A stretch of 22,636 nt of DNA from positions 1 through 22,636 of IMG/VR virus record IMGVR_UViG_2740892230_000001; one strand, written 5' to 3'. Position numbers and translations under genes: made by a program. Origin of the DNA: a virus (Duplodnaviria; Heunggongvirae; Uroviricota; Caudoviricetes). Shown in pieces: positions 1-9,320 of this stretch. Below the pieces are notes generated by a model. The model did not search any database. It saw only the letters and a program-made list of their open reading frames with translations, and was not told the DNA's origin. How positions within the stretch are numbered: position 1 is the first letter of the stretch; every line of letters starts with the position of its first letter.

Positions 1-34
1 GGTTCTTCTGACGGGCGGCGGCACAGGGATGTGC
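1..34. repeat. Left copy of a perfect 34-bp inverted repeat (partner at 1164-1197); the window starts inside it, so it may extend leftward
   Basis: 1-34 ggttcttctgacgggcggcggcacagggatgtgc is the exact reverse complement of 1164-1197. Read on the plus strand it ends a frame with GGG TTC TTC TGA, the same final codons and stop as the antirepressor gene. Confidence 0.8.
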
Positions 35-48
35 AAAACGAAACTATC

Positions 49-60
49 GTGACATGTCAC
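49..60. repeat. 12-bp perfect palindrome GTGACATGTCAC; the 14-mer tcgtgacatgtcac recurs at 21917-21930
   Basis: Direct reading; self-complementary; second identical copy about 21.9 kb away. Confidence 0.7.
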
Positions 61-78
61 AGGCCGCTTTCGCGGCCT
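61..78 (-). terminator. GC-rich stem-loop after the small secreted peptide gene (weak U-tract)
   Basis: AGGCCGC / GCGGCCT 7-bp stem with a 4-nt loop directly after the stop at 86-88; downstream T-run is poor, so terminator function is uncertain. Confidence 0.3.
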
Positions 79-85
79 TGTTCTT

Positions 86-247
86 TTAACGAATGCCACC
101 GCCGCCCGGGCGGGAATCCGCAGAACGCCCACCGCAGCGGGAGCCGTCAGCGGCAGTATCGCTGTCGTGCTGACAACGACCGGCAAAGGCCTGAGTTGAA
201 GCTACCAGAGACAACAAAACGAACAGTGCAGCAAATGCTTTTTTCAT
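86..247 (-). CDS. Small secreted peptide, 53 aa: predicted signal peptide MKKAFAALFVLLSLVASTQAFA, then a 31-aa Gly/Cys-rich mature part
   Basis: Internal Met of track ORF 86..352. Classic n/h/c signal peptide with AFA-G cleavage motif. The longer ORF start would read through the terminator hairpin at 320-339, so the MKK start is preferred. Confidence 0.35.
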   Translation of the reverse strand: MKKAFAALFVLLSLVASTQAFAGRCQHDSDTAADGSRCGGRSADSRPGGGGIR

Positions 248-260
248 TGTGAAATTTCCA

Positions 261-288
261 TCTATAAGCCACCTCAATGTGGCGTCAA
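261..288 (-). promoter_or_regulatory. Putative sigma70 promoter for the peptide gene (TTGACG-16-TATAGA) with an inverted repeat in the spacer
   Basis: Minus-strand TTGACG at 288-283 and TATAGA at 266-261; GCCAC..GTGGC inverted repeat at 268-283; very short leader. Confidence 0.3.
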
Positions 289-319
289 TGAGTGTAGCAC
301 TGACTTTTGTTTCGTCCAC

Positions 320-339
320 AAAAAAGCCCGCGCTGCGGG
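320..339 (-). terminator. Rho-independent terminator of the two-gene operon
   Basis: Minus strand reads GCCCGC-AGC-GCGGGC followed by TTTTT, immediately after the TAG stop at 340-342. Confidence 0.55.
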
Positions 340-885
340 CTATTCCTTCCATTTATCAGAAAAAAGATCTTCTTCTAAAGGCATTGGTTCTGTTTTTGTT
401 TTCTCAAAGAATTGATAACTGATAGTGATTGCTTCCTCTTTAAACTCTTCTTGCTCAGTTATGTTGTGAGCATCTGCGTCAACAAAAAACATAACCAGCG
501 CATCACGATTGTGATTTACCGAATAAACTAAAAAGCAATCACTTGTTGGTATGCATTTTACTTGTACAGACGCTATATTTTTCCATGCATCCCAAGATGA
601 TTTTTTACCAGTGTGTTTTTTATCACTATCTTCTGGAATATAGTCTTGGTTATCGACATGAGTATGCCTGACATTTAGTTTAAGCATTTCTGTCGGACGA
701 GCAAATGCAGCATCTTTACCAAGAGATGGATGGTATCCCGTTTTCCAATACTGGGTAAAGGCATCAGATACTTTCTTCAGCTCAAGATCAGATGCACAAA
801 GGGCCGAGAAATTTTGCGTATGCAACACTCGACCCTTATATCTGACAACTTGATTTTTATCATTCTGCGACGCAGACGAACTCAT
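340..885 (-). CDS. YafO-like toxin-family protein, 181 aa (candidate type II toxin / mRNA interferase)
   Basis: Track ORF 340..912 trimmed to the ATG at 885, which has an AAGGA SD. Segments KLNVRHTHVDN and FLVYSVNH..ALVMFFVDADAH resemble the recalled E. coli YafO pattern (V.H.HL.N ... HLVY ... LLIAIL..H). AT-rich gene with its own terminator. Confidence 0.45.
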   Translation of the reverse strand: MSSSASQNDKNQVVRYKGRVLHTQNFSALCASDLELKKVSDAFTQYWKTGYHPSLGKDAAFARPTEMLKLNVRHTHVDNQDYIPEDSDKKHTGKKSSWDAWKNIASVQVKCIPTSDCFLVYSVNHNRDALVMFFVDADAHNITEQEEFKEEAITISYQFFEKTKTEPMPLEEDLFSDKWKE

Positions 886-1039
886 AATTTTCCTTATTGT
901 TACGAGAATCAAAGAAAGCGCGGGATACGCGACTTGCGTGATCTTTTGTCATAGTAACTTTTACGTACTCTACGCTTCCATTGAAAGAACGTCTTGCGGC
1001 AGCTTGCGCTCTACGCATCTGCAATTTTTCGTTTCGCAT
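860..1039 (-). CDS. 59-aa ORF overlapping the toxin-like gene start by 26 nt; candidate antitoxin or regulator (absent from the ORF track, below the length cutoff)
   Basis: Hand translation: MRNEKLQMRRAQAAARRSFNGSVEYVKVTMTKDHASRVSRAFFDSRNNKENYEFVCVAE, stop TGA at 860-862. GAGG SD 7 nt upstream of the ATG at 1039. Small upstream overlapping gene is the usual antitoxin position. Confidence 0.35.
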   Translation of the reverse strand: MRNEKLQMRRAQAAARRSFNGSVEYVKVTMTKDHASRVSRAFFDSRNNKENYEFVCVAE

Positions 1040-1113
1040 GACATTACCTCATATCTCATAAGTTCATTACACGGATTAATAAAAATGAAACCAATCCGTT
1101 TACCCTTGAGGTA

Positions 1114-1142
1114 ATAGTACGCTATTCACCCACAGTCTGCAA
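1114..1142 (-). promoter_or_regulatory. Putative sigma70 promoter of the toxin-antitoxin-like operon (TTGCAG-17-TACTAT)
   Basis: Minus-strand -35 at 1142-1137 and -10 at 1119-1114. A 9-bp inverted repeat TGAGGTAAT (1107-1115) / ATTACCTCA (1043-1051) overlaps the -10 and the SD. Confidence 0.3.
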
Positions 1143-1163
1143 TCTGTACAGAATTATTTAAAG

Positions 1164-1197
1164 GCACATCCCTGTGCCGCCGCCCGTCAGAAGAACC
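1164..1197. repeat. Right copy of the 34-bp inverted repeat; overlaps the last three codons and stop of the antirepressor gene and contains the hairpin GGCACA-GGGA-TGTGCC
   Basis: Exact reverse complement of 1-34. The hairpin is followed on the minus strand by TTTAAATAATT, a possible terminator for the antirepressor gene. Confidence 0.8.
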
Positions 1198-2131
1198 CTG
1201 CTTTGTCGTTGATGTACTCCGCGTGCGTCTGGATATCACGCAGGCATTTGCTCACACCAACGATGTAACAGAACATGGTGGTCAGCTCCGCCGCCGCGCC
1301 CGATACATCGTGCCCGTCTTCCTGTAACTGGTTCAGCAGATTCATCAGCAGTGAGTTCTCCGTCAGACCGAGAACACCAGACGGAGAATGAATCAGACTG
1401 CGGTAGCCGGGCTTCAATGGATAACCATAACATTTTGTCTGTGTTTTAATTGCCTCACGAAGCGCATCTAACATCTTGACTGCCACTTCATCATTCTCTG
1501 ATGCAGATCCAGCAGGGAGATACTCCCCTTCAAGCGGAACCCGAGCAACAAGAGACAACGCTTCGGCAAATTGATCTTCACCAATTTCTTTGTACGAACA
1601 GCCAAAATGAGATTTCAGTGACGACCACATGGTGATCATCGCCTTAGCCTGTTTTTCTTTTGGCAGAGACTGACCGCGACTCATGACGAGTTGTTTAATG
1701 GCTTCCTGCTGTTCAGTTGTTATTTTACCCGGCAACGCCTTTTTAGCTTTGCGTGGGTTAACCACATGGCCTTTAGTCCAGTACTCGTAGAGCACATCGT
1801 CACACTCTTCCTGATACTGGATTACCTTGTCGCGGATTTCAGGGCGGACTTTGTTAGGGCTGATGGTTTGCAGCCAACCTGCAAGTTTGCGTAAAGCAAG
1901 ACAGATAACCAGACGACGCTGAGTATCACCGGGGAGCTGAATGGTCATTTCGACCATGCAGCTCTTAAAGCGTTGTTGCAACTTGCGGAACTGCGTTTTC
2001 CAGTCCAGCCCCATACCTTCAACGACTGGTTTCATTGGGGTGTATGGTTCGCCGTTATGATTGACAACATAAAGCTCTGCGCCGTGGAATGGCACGTTGA
2101 TAGTAGATACCGCTGTTGCTATACTCGTCAT
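1187..2131 (-). CDS. Phage antirepressor (Ant-like), 314 aa
   Basis: N-terminus NVPFHGAELYVVNHNGEPYTPMKPVVEGMGLDWKTQFRKL fits the phage antirepressor N-terminal family as I recall it. Lies directly downstream of an Arc-like gene as in P22 immI. AGGAA SD 7 nt upstream. Confidence 0.6.
   Translation of the reverse strand: MTSIATAVSTINVPFHGAELYVVNHNGEPYTPMKPVVEGMGLDWKTQFRKLQQRFKSCMVEMTIQLPGDTQRRLVICLALRKLAGWLQTISPNKVRPEIRDKVIQYQEECDDVLYEYWTKGHVVNPRKAKKALPGKITTEQQEAIKQLVMSRGQSLPKEKQAKAMITMWSSLKSHFGCSYKEIGEDQFAEALSLVARVPLEGEYLPAGSASENDEVAVKMLDALREAIKTQTKCYGYPLKPGYRSLIHSPSGVLGLTENSLLMNLLNQLQEDGHDVSGAAAELTTMFCYIVGVSKCLRDIQTHAEYINDKAGFF
2097..2125 (+). promoter_or_regulatory. Strong sigma70-like promoter on the antisense strand inside the 5' end of the antirepressor gene (TTGATA-17-TATACT)
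   Basis: TTGATA at 2097-2102, 17-nt spacer, TATACT at 2120-2125; predicted start near 2132, at the antirepressor start codon. Confidence 0.4.
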
Positions 2132-2206
2132 GTCGTTAATTCCTATACGTAGTTTTACGATACTGAAGCCCTGACGGTCTGGCCACCGTGGGGCTTCGCT
2201 GTTTTA
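2132..2206 (+). ncRNA. Predicted sar-like antisense RNA (about 70 nt) complementary to the antirepressor ribosome-binding site
   Basis: Promoter at 2097-2125, then stem GAAGCCC (2165-2171) / GGGCTTC (2191-2197) followed by GCTGTTTTA. Spans the antirepressor SD (complement of 2140-2144) and start codon. Same arrangement as the known P22 sar RNA. Confidence 0.35.
2181..2194. promoter_or_regulatory. Operator-like motif GGCCACCGTGGGGC between the Arc-like and antirepressor genes (second copy at 2386-2400)
   Basis: CCACCGTGGGGC is repeated exactly at 2183-2194 and 2389-2400; CACCGTG / CACGGTG also at 2413-2419 and 2439-2445. Confidence 0.4.
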
Positions 2207-2371
2207 TGCCACGCTATTCTTCTCACCAGTGAGTCCATACACTTTCCTCAGCTGATAGATAATCTCTGTATTGAACTTTCGGCATTCTTTTTCGCCATTT
2301 CTTTCAATAGCTAACTTCACATCGTCCGGAAAACGAACTCGTCGTTGACACATCTCTTTTGCTTTTTGCAT
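2204..2371 (-). CDS. Arc-like ribbon-helix-helix repressor, 55 aa
   Basis: Track ORF 2204..2392 trimmed to the ATG at 2371 with an AGGAGA SD. RVRFPDDVKLAIERNGEKECRKFNTEIIYQLRKVY follows the Arc pattern (FNLRWP..EVLDLV...NGRSVNSEIYQRV) recalled from P22. Confidence 0.55.
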   Translation of the reverse strand: MQKAKEMCQRRVRFPDDVKLAIERNGEKECRKFNTEIIYQLRKVYGLTGEKNSVA

Positions 2372-2385
2372 TTCATATCTCCTTA

Positions 2386-2400
2386 GCCCCACCGTGGGGC
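2386..2400. promoter_or_regulatory. Operator-like palindrome GCCCCACCGTGGGGC at the predicted start of the arc/ant transcript
   Basis: Sits between the -10 of the minus-strand promoter (2407-2412) and the Arc-like start codon (2371). Confidence 0.4.
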
Positions 2401-2406
2401 AAAATA

Positions 2407-2435
2407 ATTGTCACACCGTGCGTCATTGATGTCAA
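2407..2435 (-). promoter_or_regulatory. Putative arc/ant promoter (TTGACA-17-GACAAT) in the divergent intergenic region
   Basis: Minus-strand perfect -35 TTGACA at 2435-2430 and GACAAT at 2412-2407. A weaker divergent promoter for the Mnt-like gene may overlap it (TTGATG 2427-2432). Confidence 0.4.
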
Positions 2436-2491
2436 GCACACGGTGAGGCATACTTCAATCATTGCAAGTAACTCAATATTTGGTGAAGAAC

Positions 2492-2923
2492 ATGAGCAGA
2501 GAAGATCCACAACTAAGGATCAGACTTCCCGTTGAAGTAAAAGAAAAAATAGAAATTTCTGCAAAAGCCAATAAGCGATCAATGAACGCTGAAATAGTAC
2601 AACGTCTTGACACCAGCTTTCTGAAAGATATTCATGAAGATGACGTAATTTCTGCTTATGAAGCAAAAATTATTGCAAACAATGCACGACATGAAATATC
2701 AAATATTATTTTCAAAAGAACCTTTAATGAAATTAATAAGAAAATAACACTTGGACATACAAGTTTTTATATAAACCTTAATGACCTTGAACTGGAATCA
2801 CTTGCAGATAATGATTACCAGATCATCTTTGAAAAAACATTTAATAAGCTCAATGAACTAGGTTACATCATCTGTGAAAACTCATGGGATGCAGATGGTT
2901 TTGGAATTGAAATACCTGAATAG
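2492..2923 (+). CDS. Mnt-like repressor, 143 aa: N-terminal Arc/Mnt ribbon-helix-helix domain plus an unassigned C-terminal domain of about 95 aa
   Basis: MSREDPQLRIRLPVEVKEKIEISAKANKRSMNAEIVQRL closely parallels recalled P22 Mnt (MARDDPHFNFRMPMEVREKLKFRAEANGRSMNSELLQIV). ATG at 2492 has a GGTGA SD; the track start at 2462 is a TTG. Divergent from arc/ant as in immI. Confidence 0.6.
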   Translation: MSREDPQLRIRLPVEVKEKIEISAKANKRSMNAEIVQRLDTSFLKDIHEDDVISAYEAKIIANNARHEISNIIFKRTFNEINKKITLGHTSFYINLNDLELESLADNDYQIIFEKTFNKLNELGYIICENSWDADGFGIEIPE

Positions 2924-3013
2924 GAAGAACAAAAGGCGTGTACATATTACACGTCTTTAATACAATTGAAAAACGCCACATTACTGATGTATGTTACAAC
3001 AAGGAGCGATATT

Positions 3014-3577
3014 TTGAAAACCATATCTATATTAAAGGTTGCATTAGGCGTCGCTATTATTTTGACTCTCTCAATATTGTTTTATTTTTACCACAAAAAA
3101 ACTGCTATTGCTCTTGATGGTCACGCGGCAAACTCATTTTTCTCAGAGTACATAGTGCCGCTATCAGGAAGCGGTATAACAAATAAATATACTGACTATG
3201 ACATCAAATATGGAATTGATGATGGGGAGACTATTGTATTACATGTAATCATTAAAAACCTAATGACAGTAAATAAAAATACAGACTTCAACGATAAAAA
3301 TACAATACATCACAACAACAGCAAAACATTAATTTCTTATAGTAGCAACATCTATACGGATAAATACCTAAAATACATATCAGAAGATACAATAAAAGAA
3401 ACCCGCGAAAAGTTAAAAAACATATATTGTGCATCCGGCAGTTTTCACAAATTATCGCCGCAAGAGCGTTTATTCTACGAAGCAAGAAAACAACGTAAGT
3501 CAATAATATTACATTATTATGCTGATTCAGGGGAGTCACTCATATTTAATATTGGGGTTTCCCCTGAATCATGCTAA
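3014..3577 (+). CDS. Membrane-anchored protein, about 187 aa, N/K/Y-rich, unknown function (candidate superinfection-exclusion or abortive-infection factor)
   Basis: TTG start at 3014 with ideal AAGGAG SD 7 nt upstream (alternative starts ATG 2987, TTG 2966). N-terminal hydrophobic helix KTISILKVALGVAIILTLSILFYFY. Very AT-rich gene. Positional analogue of P22 sieA beside mnt. Confidence 0.5.
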   Translation: MKTISILKVALGVAIILTLSILFYFYHKKTAIALDGHAANSFFSEYIVPLSGSGITNKYTDYDIKYGIDDGETIVLHVIIKNLMTVNKNTDFNDKNTIHHNNSKTLISYSSNIYTDKYLKYISEDTIKETREKLKNIYCASGSFHKLSPQERLFYEARKQRKSIILHYYADSGESLIFNIGVSPESC

Positions 3578-3588
3578 AGGTGTTTAAC

Positions 3589-6500
3589 TCACCGCATCAC
3601 CGGATCCACCTGGTTTATTAGTGGCGCAATCCAGAACAGGTTATTGCCGGGTATCAGGGTTCGGACATTATGCACAATACGATCACCGGCATCACCATTC
3701 AACACTCCTGCGGTCACATCAATGATGCTATCCGCAAGACCAAATGACGGTCCGAATAGAGATCCTACGAATCCACGACTGGCATACCTAGACTGTGTGC
3801 CAGTGCCAAATAAAGCCCCCAGCCCAACAGCACCACCAGTAGCCTTTTCAGCCATGTTGTTATATTCCATCAATGGCCCAAGAATACCGGATCTATCTAT
3901 ACCCTCAAGCACCAGCTTCTCTGGTGACCAGTCAACATTTTTCCCTTTCGATGCTTCTTTTAGCGCATAGACCAGTGAGCCAAGAGCAATCTGAAATGCA
4001 GTGCCATAATAAAATTGCGCAGTTCCTTCCTGTAACCCACCAAGTAGCACACGGTTGTATGAAGCCGTTGTGAATGATTTAAACTGAAATATCGTTCGCC
4101 CCATTGGAGTACTCGCCCATAAAGGTGTGTCACCAATACCGGGGGTGATGATAGTGTTATTAACGTCTTTCAGAACCGCTGACTGGAATACTCCGGCAAC
4201 GTACTGATCGTCCCATTTATCAAAGTTACCAATGTGCCATCCATCAATTACCTCACCATGTTTCTCGAACTCACTGCGAATACGCGCAGCCATATTGTCG
4301 TTGATACCGAGTTTTGCCATGCGACGTGCAGAAAACGCACCAGACAAAATACCGTCTGACGTGAGCATTCCGTTCATGGATTTGTTTATGTCATTAAATC
4401 GATCCATGAGTGTCAGCTTGCCGAAGGCATCAGTAATTCGCTCCATTCCTGCTTCGACTGCTGTTGTCCTGGAAGAACTGTCAACAAGATCACCAATTGC
4501 ACGAGAACGTGAATGTAGTACAGCTTCCAATCCAATCCCCATCTTCAACATCTCTTCTTTGCTGGCCTTAAATGCCGGTGATTGGGATATCTGAGAAGCA
4601 TAGCCTTTCATGGTGTTACGGAAACCATTAACCATAACCCCTCTGGCCAGATCTGGAATAGCTGATACTGTCATTCCACCGAGTTTGGTCGTGAAGTTCA
4701 CATCCCGCAGAAAAGCGCCAGCACGAACAAAAAACGAAGACGGATCATCAGGCATACCATATGTACCAACAAGACGATCGCGTAATGCTGTTATGTCTCT
4801 GAGATCATTTGCTCTTGATTTTGAAAGTCTGGACTGTTCTTTCCGTAATTCCTTTTCGTACTTTCGCATTAATGAATCGAGTTTACCCTGAGGAACAACT
4901 TCACCATTGCTCTCATAACGTGCTTTCAGATTTGCCACACTTTCGTCATATTTCGCCTTTATTTTTTCAGGCACTTCCCGTAACAGACTGTCATATTCGT
5001 CCTCAATTAATTGCAGACGCTCAGTCATAGTTCGTTTGCCAAATGTTCTCGTCAACTCAATTTCTGCTGCCGCTTCACGGATATGACGTTGCAGCACGTA
5101 ATTCACATCACTTTCAAGATAATCCCTGATAAGACTATCAGGCACATTTAATGTTCTTTCTTTCGTACTACCTGCGGCTTTTACAGAAAATACGCTGACA
5201 AAATCCTGTGGAACCTTAGCACCAGTAATTTTATTAATTACGATATCCGCTGCAATTTCAGCATCCTCAGGATCCAGTGTTTTATTTCCTCTCGACCACC
5301 AGTCAACCAAAATACGTCGAAATTTATCGCGTTCACTGATTATTTTTCCAACTTTATATATACGTGGAAAATAGCTTGCCTGGCCTAATGCTTTCAGTTC
5401 TTCATCTGGCGGTAATAAACCAAGCTTTTGCATTTCAACCTTCACCCGATTTAATACAGTTCGCATCGCCTGCGCCGTTTCCTGAACAACAGGATTAGCA
5501 TGCACATCACCGCTTCGCATAGCATTCCCAACCTGCTGACGAAATGAATCAAAACTCATGTCACCACCATCAGCTTTATACTTTGCGTATGCCTGTTTAT
5601 TTCCGACAACAACAGCAGCTTCTTCACGCCGCCATCCACGTGTACGGGTTTCTACAGCTACCGGTGTTTCAATCCCCCTTTCATTTCCTTTAAGGGTGAA
5701 ATTATTTTCGGCTAACTCCAGCGTTGTTTTTCGCACTGTCTTGGACGGAGACTCCATTAACCTTGTCAAAGGAGTAAGATAGCTCCCTGCTTTCCATGCA
5801 GCCTTTCCAACCCACCCACCGGAAACAGGGGTTAAATCATCCAGAGTCGCTGTATCAATTTTCATAGCACCAACACTACCACCATCAGAAAGCGAAGCGG
5901 CAGCCCTGTCAGTCGCTGATGTAATGCTCATATTATCAAGAGCATCAGCAACCTCACGCGTGGCTGCAGCCCGGACGGATGGCGAAAGCGCAACACCAGC
6001 ACTGGCAAACACGCCGCTCATCATCGCACCCGCTGCAACGTGAGCGGCACTTTCACCCCATGAGCGTGTTATTTGCTGATTATTCAGCACAACCTCGCTT
6101 AATGCTGTACCGGCAGCACCAATCGCAATCTGTGAGCCAATACGCGCCAGTGCCCCTCCTTGAGCACCGGGGATAAACATTGACGCAACAGTAACCGGAT
6201 CCATTCCCGCAGCAATACTGGCAAGAGTTCCAACTACGCCAGCATCAGACAATAAACGTCTGTCTTCATTTTCATCATCTATCTGCTGCTTAATCCACGC
6301 CGTTTCCTCTGGCGATCGGGAATCTGCAAATTTCGCCCCCCAGTATTCATAACCGTGCAACTCATTTTTATCAGCATATGGGTTATAACCTTCGACCGGT
6401 TCAAACTGTCTGGCTGGTCGGAAAAAACCAGCCAGAATATTGTTCTGTCGCATTGCAGCCCCCCATACGGAAGGCTCCGGTGGCAATGGCTCAGGATTAG

Positions 6501-6603
6501 CCCCTTCCGGAAGGGCAACATCAAACCCAGTTTGTTCCGGCAAAACATTACCTGACGGGATCAGTCCGTTATTAAGATCTTCAGCTTGTGCATAAACTGG
6601 CAT
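3589..6603 (-). CDS. Large internal virion / ejection protein (T7 gp16-position), 1004 aa
   Basis: Last and largest gene of the gp13-14-15-16-like series. Gly/Ala-rich hydrophobic C-terminal region. Start ATG overlaps the upstream stop (TAATG). Confidence 0.55.
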   Translation of the reverse strand: MPVYAQAEDLNNGLIPSGNVLPEQTGFDVALPEGANPEPLPPEPSVWGAAMRQNNILAGFFRPARQFEPVEGYNPYADKNELHGYEYWGAKFADSRSPEETAWIKQQIDDENEDRRLLSDAGVVGTLASIAAGMDPVTVASMFIPGAQGGALARIGSQIAIGAAGTALSEVVLNNQQITRSWGESAAHVAAGAMMSGVFASAGVALSPSVRAAATREVADALDNMSITSATDRAAASLSDGGSVGAMKIDTATLDDLTPVSGGWVGKAAWKAGSYLTPLTRLMESPSKTVRKTTLELAENNFTLKGNERGIETPVAVETRTRGWRREEAAVVVGNKQAYAKYKADGGDMSFDSFRQQVGNAMRSGDVHANPVVQETAQAMRTVLNRVKVEMQKLGLLPPDEELKALGQASYFPRIYKVGKIISERDKFRRILVDWWSRGNKTLDPEDAEIAADIVINKITGAKVPQDFVSVFSVKAAGSTKERTLNVPDSLIRDYLESDVNYVLQRHIREAAAEIELTRTFGKRTMTERLQLIEDEYDSLLREVPEKIKAKYDESVANLKARYESNGEVVPQGKLDSLMRKYEKELRKEQSRLSKSRANDLRDITALRDRLVGTYGMPDDPSSFFVRAGAFLRDVNFTTKLGGMTVSAIPDLARGVMVNGFRNTMKGYASQISQSPAFKASKEEMLKMGIGLEAVLHSRSRAIGDLVDSSSRTTAVEAGMERITDAFGKLTLMDRFNDINKSMNGMLTSDGILSGAFSARRMAKLGINDNMAARIRSEFEKHGEVIDGWHIGNFDKWDDQYVAGVFQSAVLKDVNNTIITPGIGDTPLWASTPMGRTIFQFKSFTTASYNRVLLGGLQEGTAQFYYGTAFQIALGSLVYALKEASKGKNVDWSPEKLVLEGIDRSGILGPLMEYNNMAEKATGGAVGLGALFGTGTQSRYASRGFVGSLFGPSFGLADSIIDVTAGVLNGDAGDRIVHNVRTLIPGNNLFWIAPLINQVDPVMR

Positions 6604-9320
6604 TATTTAGATCCCCACGAAAAGTAATCTTTAAATTTGTCCATACGTTCGTTATGCAGGCGCTGATACTGCTCATCCAGAGCGCGATGCTTGTCTTTGA
6701 AGTTTCGTATAGCCTGTCCACGCATAATTTCTTCCTGCTCGTACTGCTCCCATTCCTGCTGCATTTTCTTATAAGGTTCCCAATCTTCTAGTGATGGTTC
6801 CCAACGCATAGGACGCCCATGTTTGTTATAAAACGGCTGGACCCGATCGATGCCATTTTCATCCTTAGTTCTTACCATAATGGCGTAATCACCATTACGA
6901 GGTGTTAACACGTCAGGGGTTATGAATAATTCTCCATTAATACGACTCTCAGGGGTTTTTGTCTCAACTACAGGAGCATTACCTGACGTGATCCCAAGCA
7001 ACGTCGGACTGGTTGTTATAATCTCTTTGCGCTCACCGTACATCAGCCGTTCTTTTTCAGCTTTCCACTGCGCCGCCTGCCAGCCTGACGGCCCATATTG
7101 ATAAAGCGCCTCCGGTGCATATTTCATAAACTGCGCTTCTCCGTTAACCTCGCTGATACTCCAGGTGCGGGCTATCTGCTGGTTGGTCATTTGCTTCGCT
7201 ACGTCAGCGTTACCACCAGCAACGCGGTAGTTAATGTCATACAGCGTCTGATAGTCATTACGGAATCTAGCTGCTTCCGGCGTCTGGTCATCCGCAGACG
7301 GATCCCAACGGAACCACTGCGCCATATTGCTGACAGCAGAATTCATCGCCTTGCTGCGATCATTTTTGTACTCTTTTGAACTCTGCGTTGATGCCAATTG
7401 AGCTTTAAGAGCATCGGTCTGGTTGTACGTAAGGTTCTGCGCCTGCTCGATAGCCGCATCAGCAGACATGCCAGAATCAGTTAGTTGCTTAACAGTCAGA
7501 TAAAAACCCTGCATATCCTTCGGCATATTTCCAATAGATGCATTGTCTGTTTCATATAACCGACTAAACAGTTCCGCCGCATTTTTAACCACTTCCTGAT
7601 TGCTGGATCGGGATACTGCTGAAAGCTGCGTGATGACCTGCGAAGGCATTATGCCAGTCTGAGCCACAAGCCGAACAACCCCATCATGAGTGGAGGCATC
7701 ATTAATACGAAAGTTCTGCGCCATTTCTGTGTAATCAGCAGCTTTCTGCATTGACTTGTTGCTTGGGTCTAATTTTTCACCTATTGTCAGCGCCTCATTG
7801 AATCTGCGTGAATCCCGTTGCGCCTGAATTGCTTCATTTGATCTCTGAAGCAATGCAGACAATTTTCCGTAAGCATCGAGTTTTAACGCATAGTGAGGAT
7901 CGTTAACCTCAGGCTTCACTTTCTGCATTTCTTCTTGCTGCTGAGAAGGAGGCAAATACTGAATTGCCTGGAATATTCTCGCGTTATCAATCGCTATATC
8001 CAGTTGATTGATTATTTTATCTGCGTTTTTTCCATACCCCCTGATGATGGTCTCCTGAGCCGGTATATAATCTGGAACCTCACCGTTATATAGCTGTGCC
8101 ATGGTGTTATTAATAGCTGGCTCAAGCTGTTCTAATATTAACTTCCTTTGCTTTTCTATCTGACTATTAGCAAGGTTATCTATTTGATAAATAGTCAGCG
8201 GATCCATTCCAGTTTTATTTTTTCTATATCGGGAAAGCCACCCTTGTGTTTCTGATGGAAGATTTCGGATAAATTCTTCTTCTGATATTTCACCTTTACG
8301 TGGATCACCGACTTTGGCGATCAGTTTATCCACGTTACCCATCCCCCAGTTATATGCTGCTCCGGTCAATATTTCGGAACCGTACTTACCATACAGTTGA
8401 TTTACATAGTCACTGGCGAGCATTTCATGCTGTTGTTCGTCAGTAGGGTTGTATTCAACGCCACGCTTGGCCGCCAGTTCTTTTCCTGTGCCCGGCATTA
8501 ACTGGTATTTCCCCTGCGCTCTCTCTCCAGAAGATGTTATCGGTCCCTCAAGAAGACTACCATCAGGATTAAAATGTCGATCACCTGATTCAACAAGGCG
8601 TATGGCACGCATGTCCATGCCTCCAGAATCATTTTTCTGAAACAGACCATTTAGCCATCCTTCTGGATTGGCAGCGGCATAATTCTTCGCCCGCATTTCT
8701 GTGGCACTGCGATCATCACTTTCTATTTCTTCCAGAATGCGTTCTTGTGACCATCCCCTGGCAGCTCCATATCTGGCAATGGCTACCATTCTGGAATTTC
8801 TGGCTAAAGTGGCAGTTTGCGGGTCATTCCAGGCATCCGCTTCATTTTGTATCCATAATTTTCTCGTTGCCTGATATTGCTCATCTTCATAGGCATTTGT
8901 CTGCCCTATCTCATGTCTGAGAACTCCAGTACTGAACTGAATTTTCTGTGTTCTGGCTTGTTGCAAAAACATATTTCTTGCTGCTTCATCAGTCAATGAA
9001 GCAGCTATTTCTTCCACATCCTGATCAAATCCAGATATGTACTCTTGCCCCTTACCAATCGCATTTTTGCCTTGTTGTGCATAAAAACCGGTTTGAGGGT
9101 TATAAAGACGTTCATTGCTGCGCTGATTAAGCTGAAGGATGGCATCCTGAGACAATGCAACATTCGCTTTCTGCCTGGCTTCACCATATGCCACCGCATA
9201 CTGATCTGCGACATTCGCCAGCACCTGACCTGCTTGAGGAACATCGAAGGTCTGAAAACCACCGGTTTGTACACCACGACTCTCAACCTGACGTCCTGAT
9301 ACTGTTGGTACGACTGGCAT
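6603..9320 (-). CDS. Internal virion protein with lytic transglycosylase domain (gp15-position), about 905 aa
   Basis: SLT-type motifs VESGDRHF ... YQLMPGT ... AAYNWG encoded at about 8300-8635. Start placed at the ATG at 9320 (GGAGG SD, TAATG overlap with the upstream stop) rather than the track start 9395. Confidence 0.7.
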   Translation of the reverse strand: MPVVPTVSGRQVESRGVQTGGFQTFDVPQAGQVLANVADQYAVAYGEARQKANVALSQDAILQLNQRSNERLYNPQTGFYAQQGKNAIGKGQEYISGFDQDVEEIAASLTDEAARNMFLQQARTQKIQFSTGVLRHEIGQTNAYEDEQYQATRKLWIQNEADAWNDPQTATLARNSRMVAIARYGAARGWSQERILEEIESDDRSATEMRAKNYAAANPEGWLNGLFQKNDSGGMDMRAIRLVESGDRHFNPDGSLLEGPITSSGERAQGKYQLMPGTGKELAAKRGVEYNPTDEQQHEMLASDYVNQLYGKYGSEILTGAAYNWGMGNVDKLIAKVGDPRKGEISEEEFIRNLPSETQGWLSRYRKNKTGMDPLTIYQIDNLANSQIEKQRKLILEQLEPAINNTMAQLYNGEVPDYIPAQETIIRGYGKNADKIINQLDIAIDNARIFQAIQYLPPSQQQEEMQKVKPEVNDPHYALKLDAYGKLSALLQRSNEAIQAQRDSRRFNEALTIGEKLDPSNKSMQKAADYTEMAQNFRINDASTHDGVVRLVAQTGIMPSQVITQLSAVSRSSNQEVVKNAAELFSRLYETDNASIGNMPKDMQGFYLTVKQLTDSGMSADAAIEQAQNLTYNQTDALKAQLASTQSSKEYKNDRSKAMNSAVSNMAQWFRWDPSADDQTPEAARFRNDYQTLYDINYRVAGGNADVAKQMTNQQIARTWSISEVNGEAQFMKYAPEALYQYGPSGWQAAQWKAEKERLMYGERKEIITTSPTLLGITSGNAPVVETKTPESRINGELFITPDVLTPRNGDYAIMVRTKDENGIDRVQPFYNKHGRPMRWEPSLEDWEPYKKMQQEWEQYEQEEIMRGQAIRNFKDKHRALDEQYQRLHNERMDKFKDYFSWGSK

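Follow-up and report, generated by a model that had tools for sequence, protein, structure and literature searches.

An exchangeable cargo slot, probably flanked by two convergent antirepressor genes with a shared 3' module, in a temperate Escherichia coli phage

Why does a tailed-phage sequence begin with 34 bases that return, exactly inverted, at the end of an antirepressor gene? The DNA concerned, referred to here as the window, is a stretch of 22,636 nucleotides (nt) from a virus of the Caudoviricetes (IMG/VR record IMGVR_UViG_2740892230_000001, positions 1 to 22,636). Its two 34-base copies enclose a short set of accessory genes, the cargo. The best answer, with a probability of about 85%, is that two convergent antirepressor genes with a shared 3' module flank a prophage cargo slot in a temperate E. 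coli phage, and that the slot is occasionally flipped by homologous recombination. The immunity I (immI) antirepressor Ant, itself controlled by Arc, a Mnt-like repressor and the sar RNA, would face a gene of the Bro-N type, and a 77-codon module common to the 3' ends of both genes would form the repeat. A co-directional cargo string, consisting of a 59-amino-acid (aa) open reading frame (ORF), a YafO-family toxin gene and a signal-peptide gene, would end at a shared hairpin terminator. General recombination between the two arms would flip the cargo and place the string behind the other antirepressor gene.

The inverted repeat and the genes that carry it

Direct comparison showed that bases 1-34 of the window are the exact reverse complement of bases 1164-1197, as the original prediction had stated. 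The 34-mer has only two sites in the window, and none of 100 shuffled sequences contained a match, even when 3 mismatches were allowed. The right copy, as was also predicted, spans the last codons and the stop of ant (1187-2131, minus strand) and a hairpin with a 6-bp stem and a 4-nt loop. The folding energy of this tip hairpin is unremarkable (z = -0.8). Because the repeat begins at base 1, its length of 34 nt could have been set by the edge of the window, and it was. In Escherichia phage TL-2011b (NC_019445) the perfect tip is 38 nt long and the whole arm ~257-292 nt. Thus the predicted exactness of the repeat stands but its predicted length does not; the 34-mer is the inner tip of a longer inverted repeat of ~260 bases. 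The two arms contain the following features:

1-34, plus strand: left repeat tip, truncated by the window edge
1-11, plus strand: coding part of the left tip, reading ..G F F and the stop of a putative plus-strand antirepressor-family gene that lies outside the window
21-34: small hairpin of the left tip
1164-1420, minus strand: full right repeat arm, composed of the last 77 codons of ant and 23 nt of 3' untranslated region (UTR), with the perfect tip at 1164-1197
1187-2131, minus strand: ant, the immI antirepressor gene, 314 aa; its N-terminal domain is P22_AR_N and its C-terminus is the shared module

Identity between the window and phage TL-2011b is 99.99%. Over 21.5 kb, positions 1164-22636 match TL-2011b 10794-32267 in reverse complement, apart from 1 substitution and one 1-nt insertion or deletion (indel), and positions 1-1163 correspond to the plus strand of TL-2011b 32234-33396 with 0 mismatches. 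In TL-2011b the cassette is flanked on one side by Ant (gp42) and on the other by a protein with a Bro-N domain (gp46), encoded convergently. The arms extend over 292 nt at 91% identity in a repeat search and are ~97% identical across the inner 257 nt of the coding module. In E. coli UTME-12, two convergent Bro-N genes have arms of at least 478 nt. A convergent antirepressor-like gene ending at base 11 had been predicted from the left tip, and such a gene is present in TL-2011b, in all relatives whose left flank is available and in many prophages of E. coli. Beyond the edge of the window it would be of the Bro-N type, as in the closest relative, or of the AntA or ORF6N type, as in others.

The repeat exists because two different, facing antirepressor-family genes share a C-terminal module of 77 codons and a 3' UTR. 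The protein sequence of the module (PLKPGYRS...DKAGFF) is identical in Ant and in the Bro-N protein, all nucleotide differences between the two copies being synonymous. This suggests that both copies are working ends of genes, not relics, and the arms are coding sequence under purifying selection. Four unrelated N-terminal domains were found joined to the module: P22_AR_N, Bro-N, AntA and ORF6N. Copies with >90% nucleotide identity, differing by synonymous changes only, lie at 1187-1420 of the window (minus strand) and in related loci L003 (33420-33650), L007 (2776-3009) and L021 (4641-4875). The 77-aa module retrieved no family in a Pfam search and matches only PHROGs of unknown function. PHROGs 450 and 15539, with profiles of 88 and 55 positions, match the module and may represent stand-alone copies of it.

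The cargo and its turnover

The slot was compared across 5,426 complete E. coli genomes, 50,697 phage records and 35 IMG/VR loci that encode the toxin. The gene order is constant in 35 of the 35 IMG/VR loci: an antirepressor-family gene, the 59-aa ORF, the toxin gene and, where its marker was found, the peptide gene, all co-directional. Most of these loci, together with hundreds of complete E. coli genomes that have the string, carry a single antirepressor gene and no second arm. The idea of a repeat-bounded cassette, advanced in the original prediction, thus fails, since the same string is common behind one antirepressor gene in places where there is no second repeat. Other prophages have the same two arms around other cargo (DUF4760, DUF2335 and several unknown genes), and at least 6 different cargo sets were found between the same flanks. 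The repeats are thus parts of the flanking genes rather than of the cassette.

The speed of this exchange is seen at one IMG/VR locus, L016 (IMGVR_UViG_3300015186_000011, 2374-7271). Its Ant, Arc, Mnt and orf203 markers are 100% identical to those of the window, and the cargo between its arms is different. Since the backbone is the same and the cargo is not, turnover of cargo in the slot outpaces point mutation in the backbone. SCU-387 carries a further cargo gene, hyp633, which is widespread but occurs on this backbone in SCU-387 only. The cargo string is part of a variable "ant moron", one of many interchangeable sets, with its usual place downstream of a non-immI antirepressor gene. An inverted duplication around inserted cargo, also proposed earlier, is correct in part. 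The cargo is exchangeable and recombination between the arms can invert it, but what forms the arms is a module of 77 codons common to two genes that otherwise differ, and the cargo string goes with one of them.

Between the arms of the window lie the following features:

61-78, both strands: GC-rich hairpin with a 7-bp stem and a T-rich tail on the plus strand, between the left convergent gene and the peptide gene
86-247, minus strand: gene for a 53-aa protein with an N-terminal signal peptide (AFA|G) and a 31-aa mature part with Cys
325-341, minus strand: terminator-like hairpin and T-run, directly 3' of the toxin gene
340-885, minus strand: YafO-family toxin gene, 181 aa, assigned from Pfam, PHROG and RefSeq
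860-1039, minus strand: 59-aa ORF, a putative antitoxin gene, with a 26-nt overlap with the toxin start
1095-1163, no strand assigned: conserved 69-nt segment that adjoins the right arm

A toxin-antitoxin-like operon and a small secreted peptide had been predicted as the cargo, and the searches agreed, yielding a YafO-family toxin unit (Pfam, PHROG) and a signal-peptide gene. The match of the toxin to Pfam YafO_toxin (PF13957) is marginal, 26.3 bits against a cut-off of 25 (E = 8e-6). The toxin also matches PHROG 1651, and its RefSeq name is "type II toxin-antitoxin system YafO family toxin". The 59-aa ORF is conserved, with a full-length match to PHROG 6685 (E = 3e-45), and has no family match in Pfam, NCBIfam or PADLOC. 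PADLOC and NCBIfam returned nothing for any of the cargo proteins. The 53-aa protein has no Pfam match; it matches PHROG 14503, "membrane associated protein", of the moron category (E = 2e-40). This peptide protein (WP_000708858.1) occurs with different cargo sets and is the constant distal gene of the string. The hairpin at 61-78 is terminator-like on the plus strand, and on the minus strand it is the 3' hairpin of the peptide gene (fold z = -3.2). The cassette had been described as AT-rich. This holds for the YafO unit (35-43% GC) but not for the peptide-gene end (positions 1-300, 55-62% GC), and the neighboring Mnt-like gene and orf203 (positions 2500-3500) are more AT-rich still, at 27-35% GC.

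The 69-nt segment at 1095-1163 precedes unrelated cargo operons in other prophages (ETEC1749, SCU-387, L006 and L014). It is probably a promoter or boundary region of cargo operons, and may be a portable promoter or a recombination boundary sequence. Copies lie at ~4000-4090 and ~2510-2800 in L004, ~4020-4087 in L005 and ~2030-2100 in L006. In ETEC1749 the gene layout suggests that the segment stands on both sides of the slot, with two convergent cargo operons; only the Ant-side copy is a direct BLAST hit.

Inversion of the cargo

Relative to Ant/Arc and the structural genes, the cassette of the window is inverted with respect to TL-2011b. The Ant-side arm of the window carries the Ant-arm alleles of TL-2011b at every informative site except the innermost, 1202, which has the allele of the other (Bro-N) arm of TL-2011b. 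Because 1202 alone carries the Bro-N-arm allele, the switch must lie inside the 56-nt identical run at 1203-1258, which is outside the perfect tip. Across the population these alleles form mosaics, and they carry information only when TL-2011b is the reference. A 126-nt junction pattern, tried as a marker specific for the Ant arm, was rejected when it also matched the Bro-N gene of an unrelated phage (L006).

That the locus does invert is seen from one clean natural pair of finished genomes, ETEC4085 and UTAK-6, in which a ~1-kb cassette, 99.8% identical, lies in opposite orientations between the same flanks. The two genomes have an identical AntA/AntB protein, a backbone that is 99.7% identical and the same three cargo proteins. 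Thus inversion by homologous recombination, predicted as a possibility, has a natural example. The arm alleles of both genomes are mosaic. The two arms are 98% identical to each other in ETEC4085 (L007, 2776-3032 and 4039-4295) but only 93.8% identical in UTAK-6 (L008, 3640-3896 and 4903-5160), which suggests that gene conversion between the arms accompanied or followed the inversion. The immI-headed orientation recurs, around other cargo, in SCU-387. The orientations are unequal in number, Ant facing the peptide gene in 25 complete genomes against 2 with the opposite arrangement.

The homology of the arms amounts to 257-292 nt at 91-98% identity and includes identical runs of 38-96 nt. With arms of this length and identity, general homologous recombination can flip the cargo. 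Exchange points are variable, and arms with mosaic or converted alleles were found. TL-2011b encodes RecT-like and exonuclease VIII proteins. The pathway would be either that of the host RecA or that of the phage RecT/exonuclease pair, and a flip might affect expression of the cargo.

The flip seen in the window itself is a separate matter. On balance, an assembly artefact, a wrong turn taken by a short-read assembler inside the repeat, is somewhat the likelier explanation. In BLAST searches with junction queries, the junction of the window, P22_AR_N Ant followed by the 59-aa ORF and YafO, was found in none of the 5,426 complete E. coli genomes, against 25 with the TL-type junction; 7 of the genomes have this cargo in the orientation opposite to that of the window. 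Nor was the arrangement found in the 50,697 phage records or the 35 IMG/VR loci. The end of the window lies 34 nt into the second arm, and 5 of 12 related metagenome or IMG/VR contigs also end inside an arm, at positions equivalent to 1330, 1169, 1208, 1172 and 1319 of the window (L010, L011, L013, L017 and L018, respectively). The repeat regularly breaks short-read assemblies of these phages, and most probably the first base of the window marks a place where it ended a contig. An assembler taking the wrong exit from the 56-nt run would yield the sequence of the window and would stop on re-entering its own reverse complement.

A biological flip is possible but the less favored explanation. It would be either a recent inversion by homologous recombination in a TL-2011b-like phage or the coexistence of both isomers in the sample. 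A single reciprocal exchange predicts the pattern observed, in which all Ant-arm alleles are the arm's own except the innermost at 1202, and inversion at this locus is documented in finished genomes. The identical backbone and different cargo of L016 point to a slot that recombines faster than the backbone mutates, TL-2011b has its own RecT-like and exonuclease VIII proteins, and a mixed population would also account for the assembly breaks at the repeat. However, the arrangement with this cargo is unmatched in all the collections searched, and the sequence breaks off within the repeat. In any de Bruijn assembly with k <=55, an identical sequence would result from a path switch in the 56-nt run. 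In addition, the 99.99% identity of the backbone to TL-2011b leaves very little time for an inversion to become fixed.

Several points weigh against the reading preferred here, that of two convergent antirepressor genes around an occasionally inverted slot, with a wrongly assembled copy in the window. First, the left flank of the window was not recovered: scans for exact patterns in IMG/VR, in metagenome contigs and in species-representative genomes matched only other phages or TL-2011b. The second gene is consequently drawn from relatives and not read directly. Second, the toxin assignment is barely above threshold, and the putative antitoxin has no family behind it. Third, a consensus scan detected no promoter within 1-1200 for either cargo unit. 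Of the independently promoted and terminated units that had been predicted, the terminator-like hairpins at 61-78 and 341-325 are present, but the scan revealed no promoters. Fourth, no repeat of TL-2011b coincides with the far end of the window, so the window as a whole is only possibly a repeat-bounded contig. Fifth, the window stops 34 nt into the 38-nt perfect tip and not at the end of the tip. Lastly, the sole informative site, 1202, is polymorphic in the wider population.

A bolder proposal treats the shared 3' module as a recombination toggle. The cargo would be moved from the second antirepressor gene to the immI-controlled ant and would thereby be coupled to Pant, Arc, Mnt and sar; flips driven by RecT/exonuclease would be frequent, and isomers would coexist. 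This seems doubtful. If true, it would explain both the flip of the window and the frequent assembly breaks at the repeat. Should flipping be frequent and alter cargo expression, the locus would act as a recombinase-free switch within the immunity region of a prophage, which phage biologists would find moderately interesting.

Site-specific inversion, with the 34-bp repeats as crossover sites of a Gin/Hin/Cin-type invertase, is very improbable. Such systems (Mu G/Gin, P1 C/Cin, Salmonella Hin) require a serine invertase gene beside the segment, an enhancer and a crossover core of fixed position, and what they switch are alternative genes for tail fibres or flagellins. The resemblance is that of a segment of ~1.1 kb bounded by short perfect inverted repeats and found in two orientations; that the G segment of phage Mu also has 34-bp repeats is a coincidence. 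The invertase, the fixed core, the enhancer and the alternative tail-fibre or flagellin genes are absent here. No recombinase gene lies in or beside the cassette, and the TL-2011b annotation lists an integrase only, which rules out an invertase switch. Moreover, the repeat is really ~257 nt of coding sequence, the exchange point of the window at 1203-1258 lies outside the perfect tip and is not confined to a short core within it, arm alleles elsewhere are mosaic, and an orientation skew of 25 to 2 is unlike that of a free switch. The site-specific invertible cassette of the original prediction is accordingly abandoned.

The same prediction offered a mobile cassette or a remnant like a miniature inverted-repeat transposable element (MITE), with the 34-mers as terminal inverted repeats, and this is just as improbable. 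Inverted termini do enclose DNA of different composition. Yet the repeats belong to and stay with the flanking genes instead of traveling with the cargo, which rules out this explanation: the cargo string is common with one arm only, in hundreds of genomes, and different cargo is found between the same arms. The interior is fully coding, with three non-transposase genes and no features of a MITE, and no direct repeats were found on its flanks. Similarity by chance at the edge of the window can be dismissed altogether, given that no shuffled sequence matched with 3 mismatches allowed and that relatives extend the repeat to ~257-478 nt.

The practical meaning of the preferred reading is that the sharing of modules among phage regulatory genes makes inverted repeats, which reshuffle accessory genes such as toxin-antitoxin pairs and small secreted proteins and also mislead short-read assemblers. 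Where a draft phage contig contains a small segment bounded by repeats, the orientation of that segment is not trustworthy without spanning reads.

The immunity region and comparison with known systems

The antirepressor gene ant is part of a regulatory region located between the virion internal-protein genes and the tail-fibre gene. The features upstream of and around ant are as follows:

2097-2125, plus strand: Psar-like promoter site
2133-2200, plus strand: sar antisense RNA, Rfam RF00262, full length, 44.8 bits (gathering score 43), E = 4e-7
2204-2371, minus strand: arc-like small repressor gene upstream of ant, corresponding to TL-2011b gp41 "Arc-like repressor"; PHROG 228, matched for 2204-2392
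2435-2407, minus strand: Pant-like promoter
2492-2923, plus strand: gene for a Mnt-like repressor of the Arc family, transcribed away from arc-ant; Pfam Arc PF03869, matched for 2462-2923, E = 1e-14; PHROG 1388, full length

Ant matches Pfam P22_AR_N (PF10547, E = 2.9e-45) and PHROG 524/245, and its C-terminus matches PHROG 450/15539. The sar RNA, the Arc-family genes and the Pant- and Psar-like sites together identify the region, on sequence grounds, as a P22-type immunity I module.

In P22-like phages the accessory genes at the ant position differ among otherwise syntenic phages and are in "rapid flux"; they were named the "ant moron" (Villafane et al. 2008, PMC2629481). The present locus resembles the P22 immI region in having ant with P22_AR_N, ribbon-helix-helix repressor genes of the Arc and Mnt types on either side of the ant promoter, sar RNA between arc and ant and a site between internal-protein and tail fibre/spike genes, as well as variable accessory genes at the same position among related phages. 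It differs in several ways. The complete P22-type immI circuit is here combined with virion genes of the TL-2011b kind, which are not those of P22. The C-terminal module of Ant recurs in a second, convergent antirepressor gene, and a long inverted repeat results. The C-terminus of Ant matches no Pfam family, and inversion of cargo is not mentioned in PMC2629481.

A parallel for the recombination substrate is hsdMS of Staphylococcus aureus, where inverted 1.7-kb repeats mediate a megabase-scale inversion, reported to be recA-independent, with a colony phenotype (Guerillot et al. 2019, PMC6778178). In both systems near-identical inverted coding copies are the substrate, patterns of single nucleotide polymorphisms mark the exchange point and short reads cannot resolve the orientation. 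The repeats here are only 0.26 kb long, however, and the segment is 1.1 kb within a prophage.

The toxin unit can be compared with E. coli yafN-yafO. The toxin matches YafO_toxin, and a small overlapping ORF precedes it. Chromosomal YafO is ~130 aa. The prophage protein is 181 aa, its match is marginal (26.3 vs 25 bits), it resides in a prophage cargo slot, and the ORF upstream of it has no Pfam, NCBIfam or PADLOC family, no search aimed at kinship with YafN having been made.

The locus is a new instance of known phenomena, an ant moron and inversion between paralogous repeats, in an ordinary phage mosaic. A literature search found no paper describing this repeat or this inversion. Taken alone, the finding is of little weight.

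Two further observations concern the neighboring genes. The sole indel between the window and TL-2011b is an extra G in the TL-2011b record (~30912; window ~2519). It frameshifts the Mnt-like gene, which is annotated there as a shorter gp40. The gene is intact in the window and in SCU-387; the extra G could be either a sequencing error or a real regulatory mutation in immI. The second observation concerns orf203 (2966-3577, plus strand), which has 27-35% GC and, by eye, a hydrophobic N-terminal stretch that suggests a membrane protein. It matches PHROG 8033, of unknown function, and gave a weak TIR-like (ThsB) hit in PADLOC (E = 0.006). orf203 adjoins the Mnt-like gene, the position occupied by sieA in P22, and is possibly an exclusion or defence gene.

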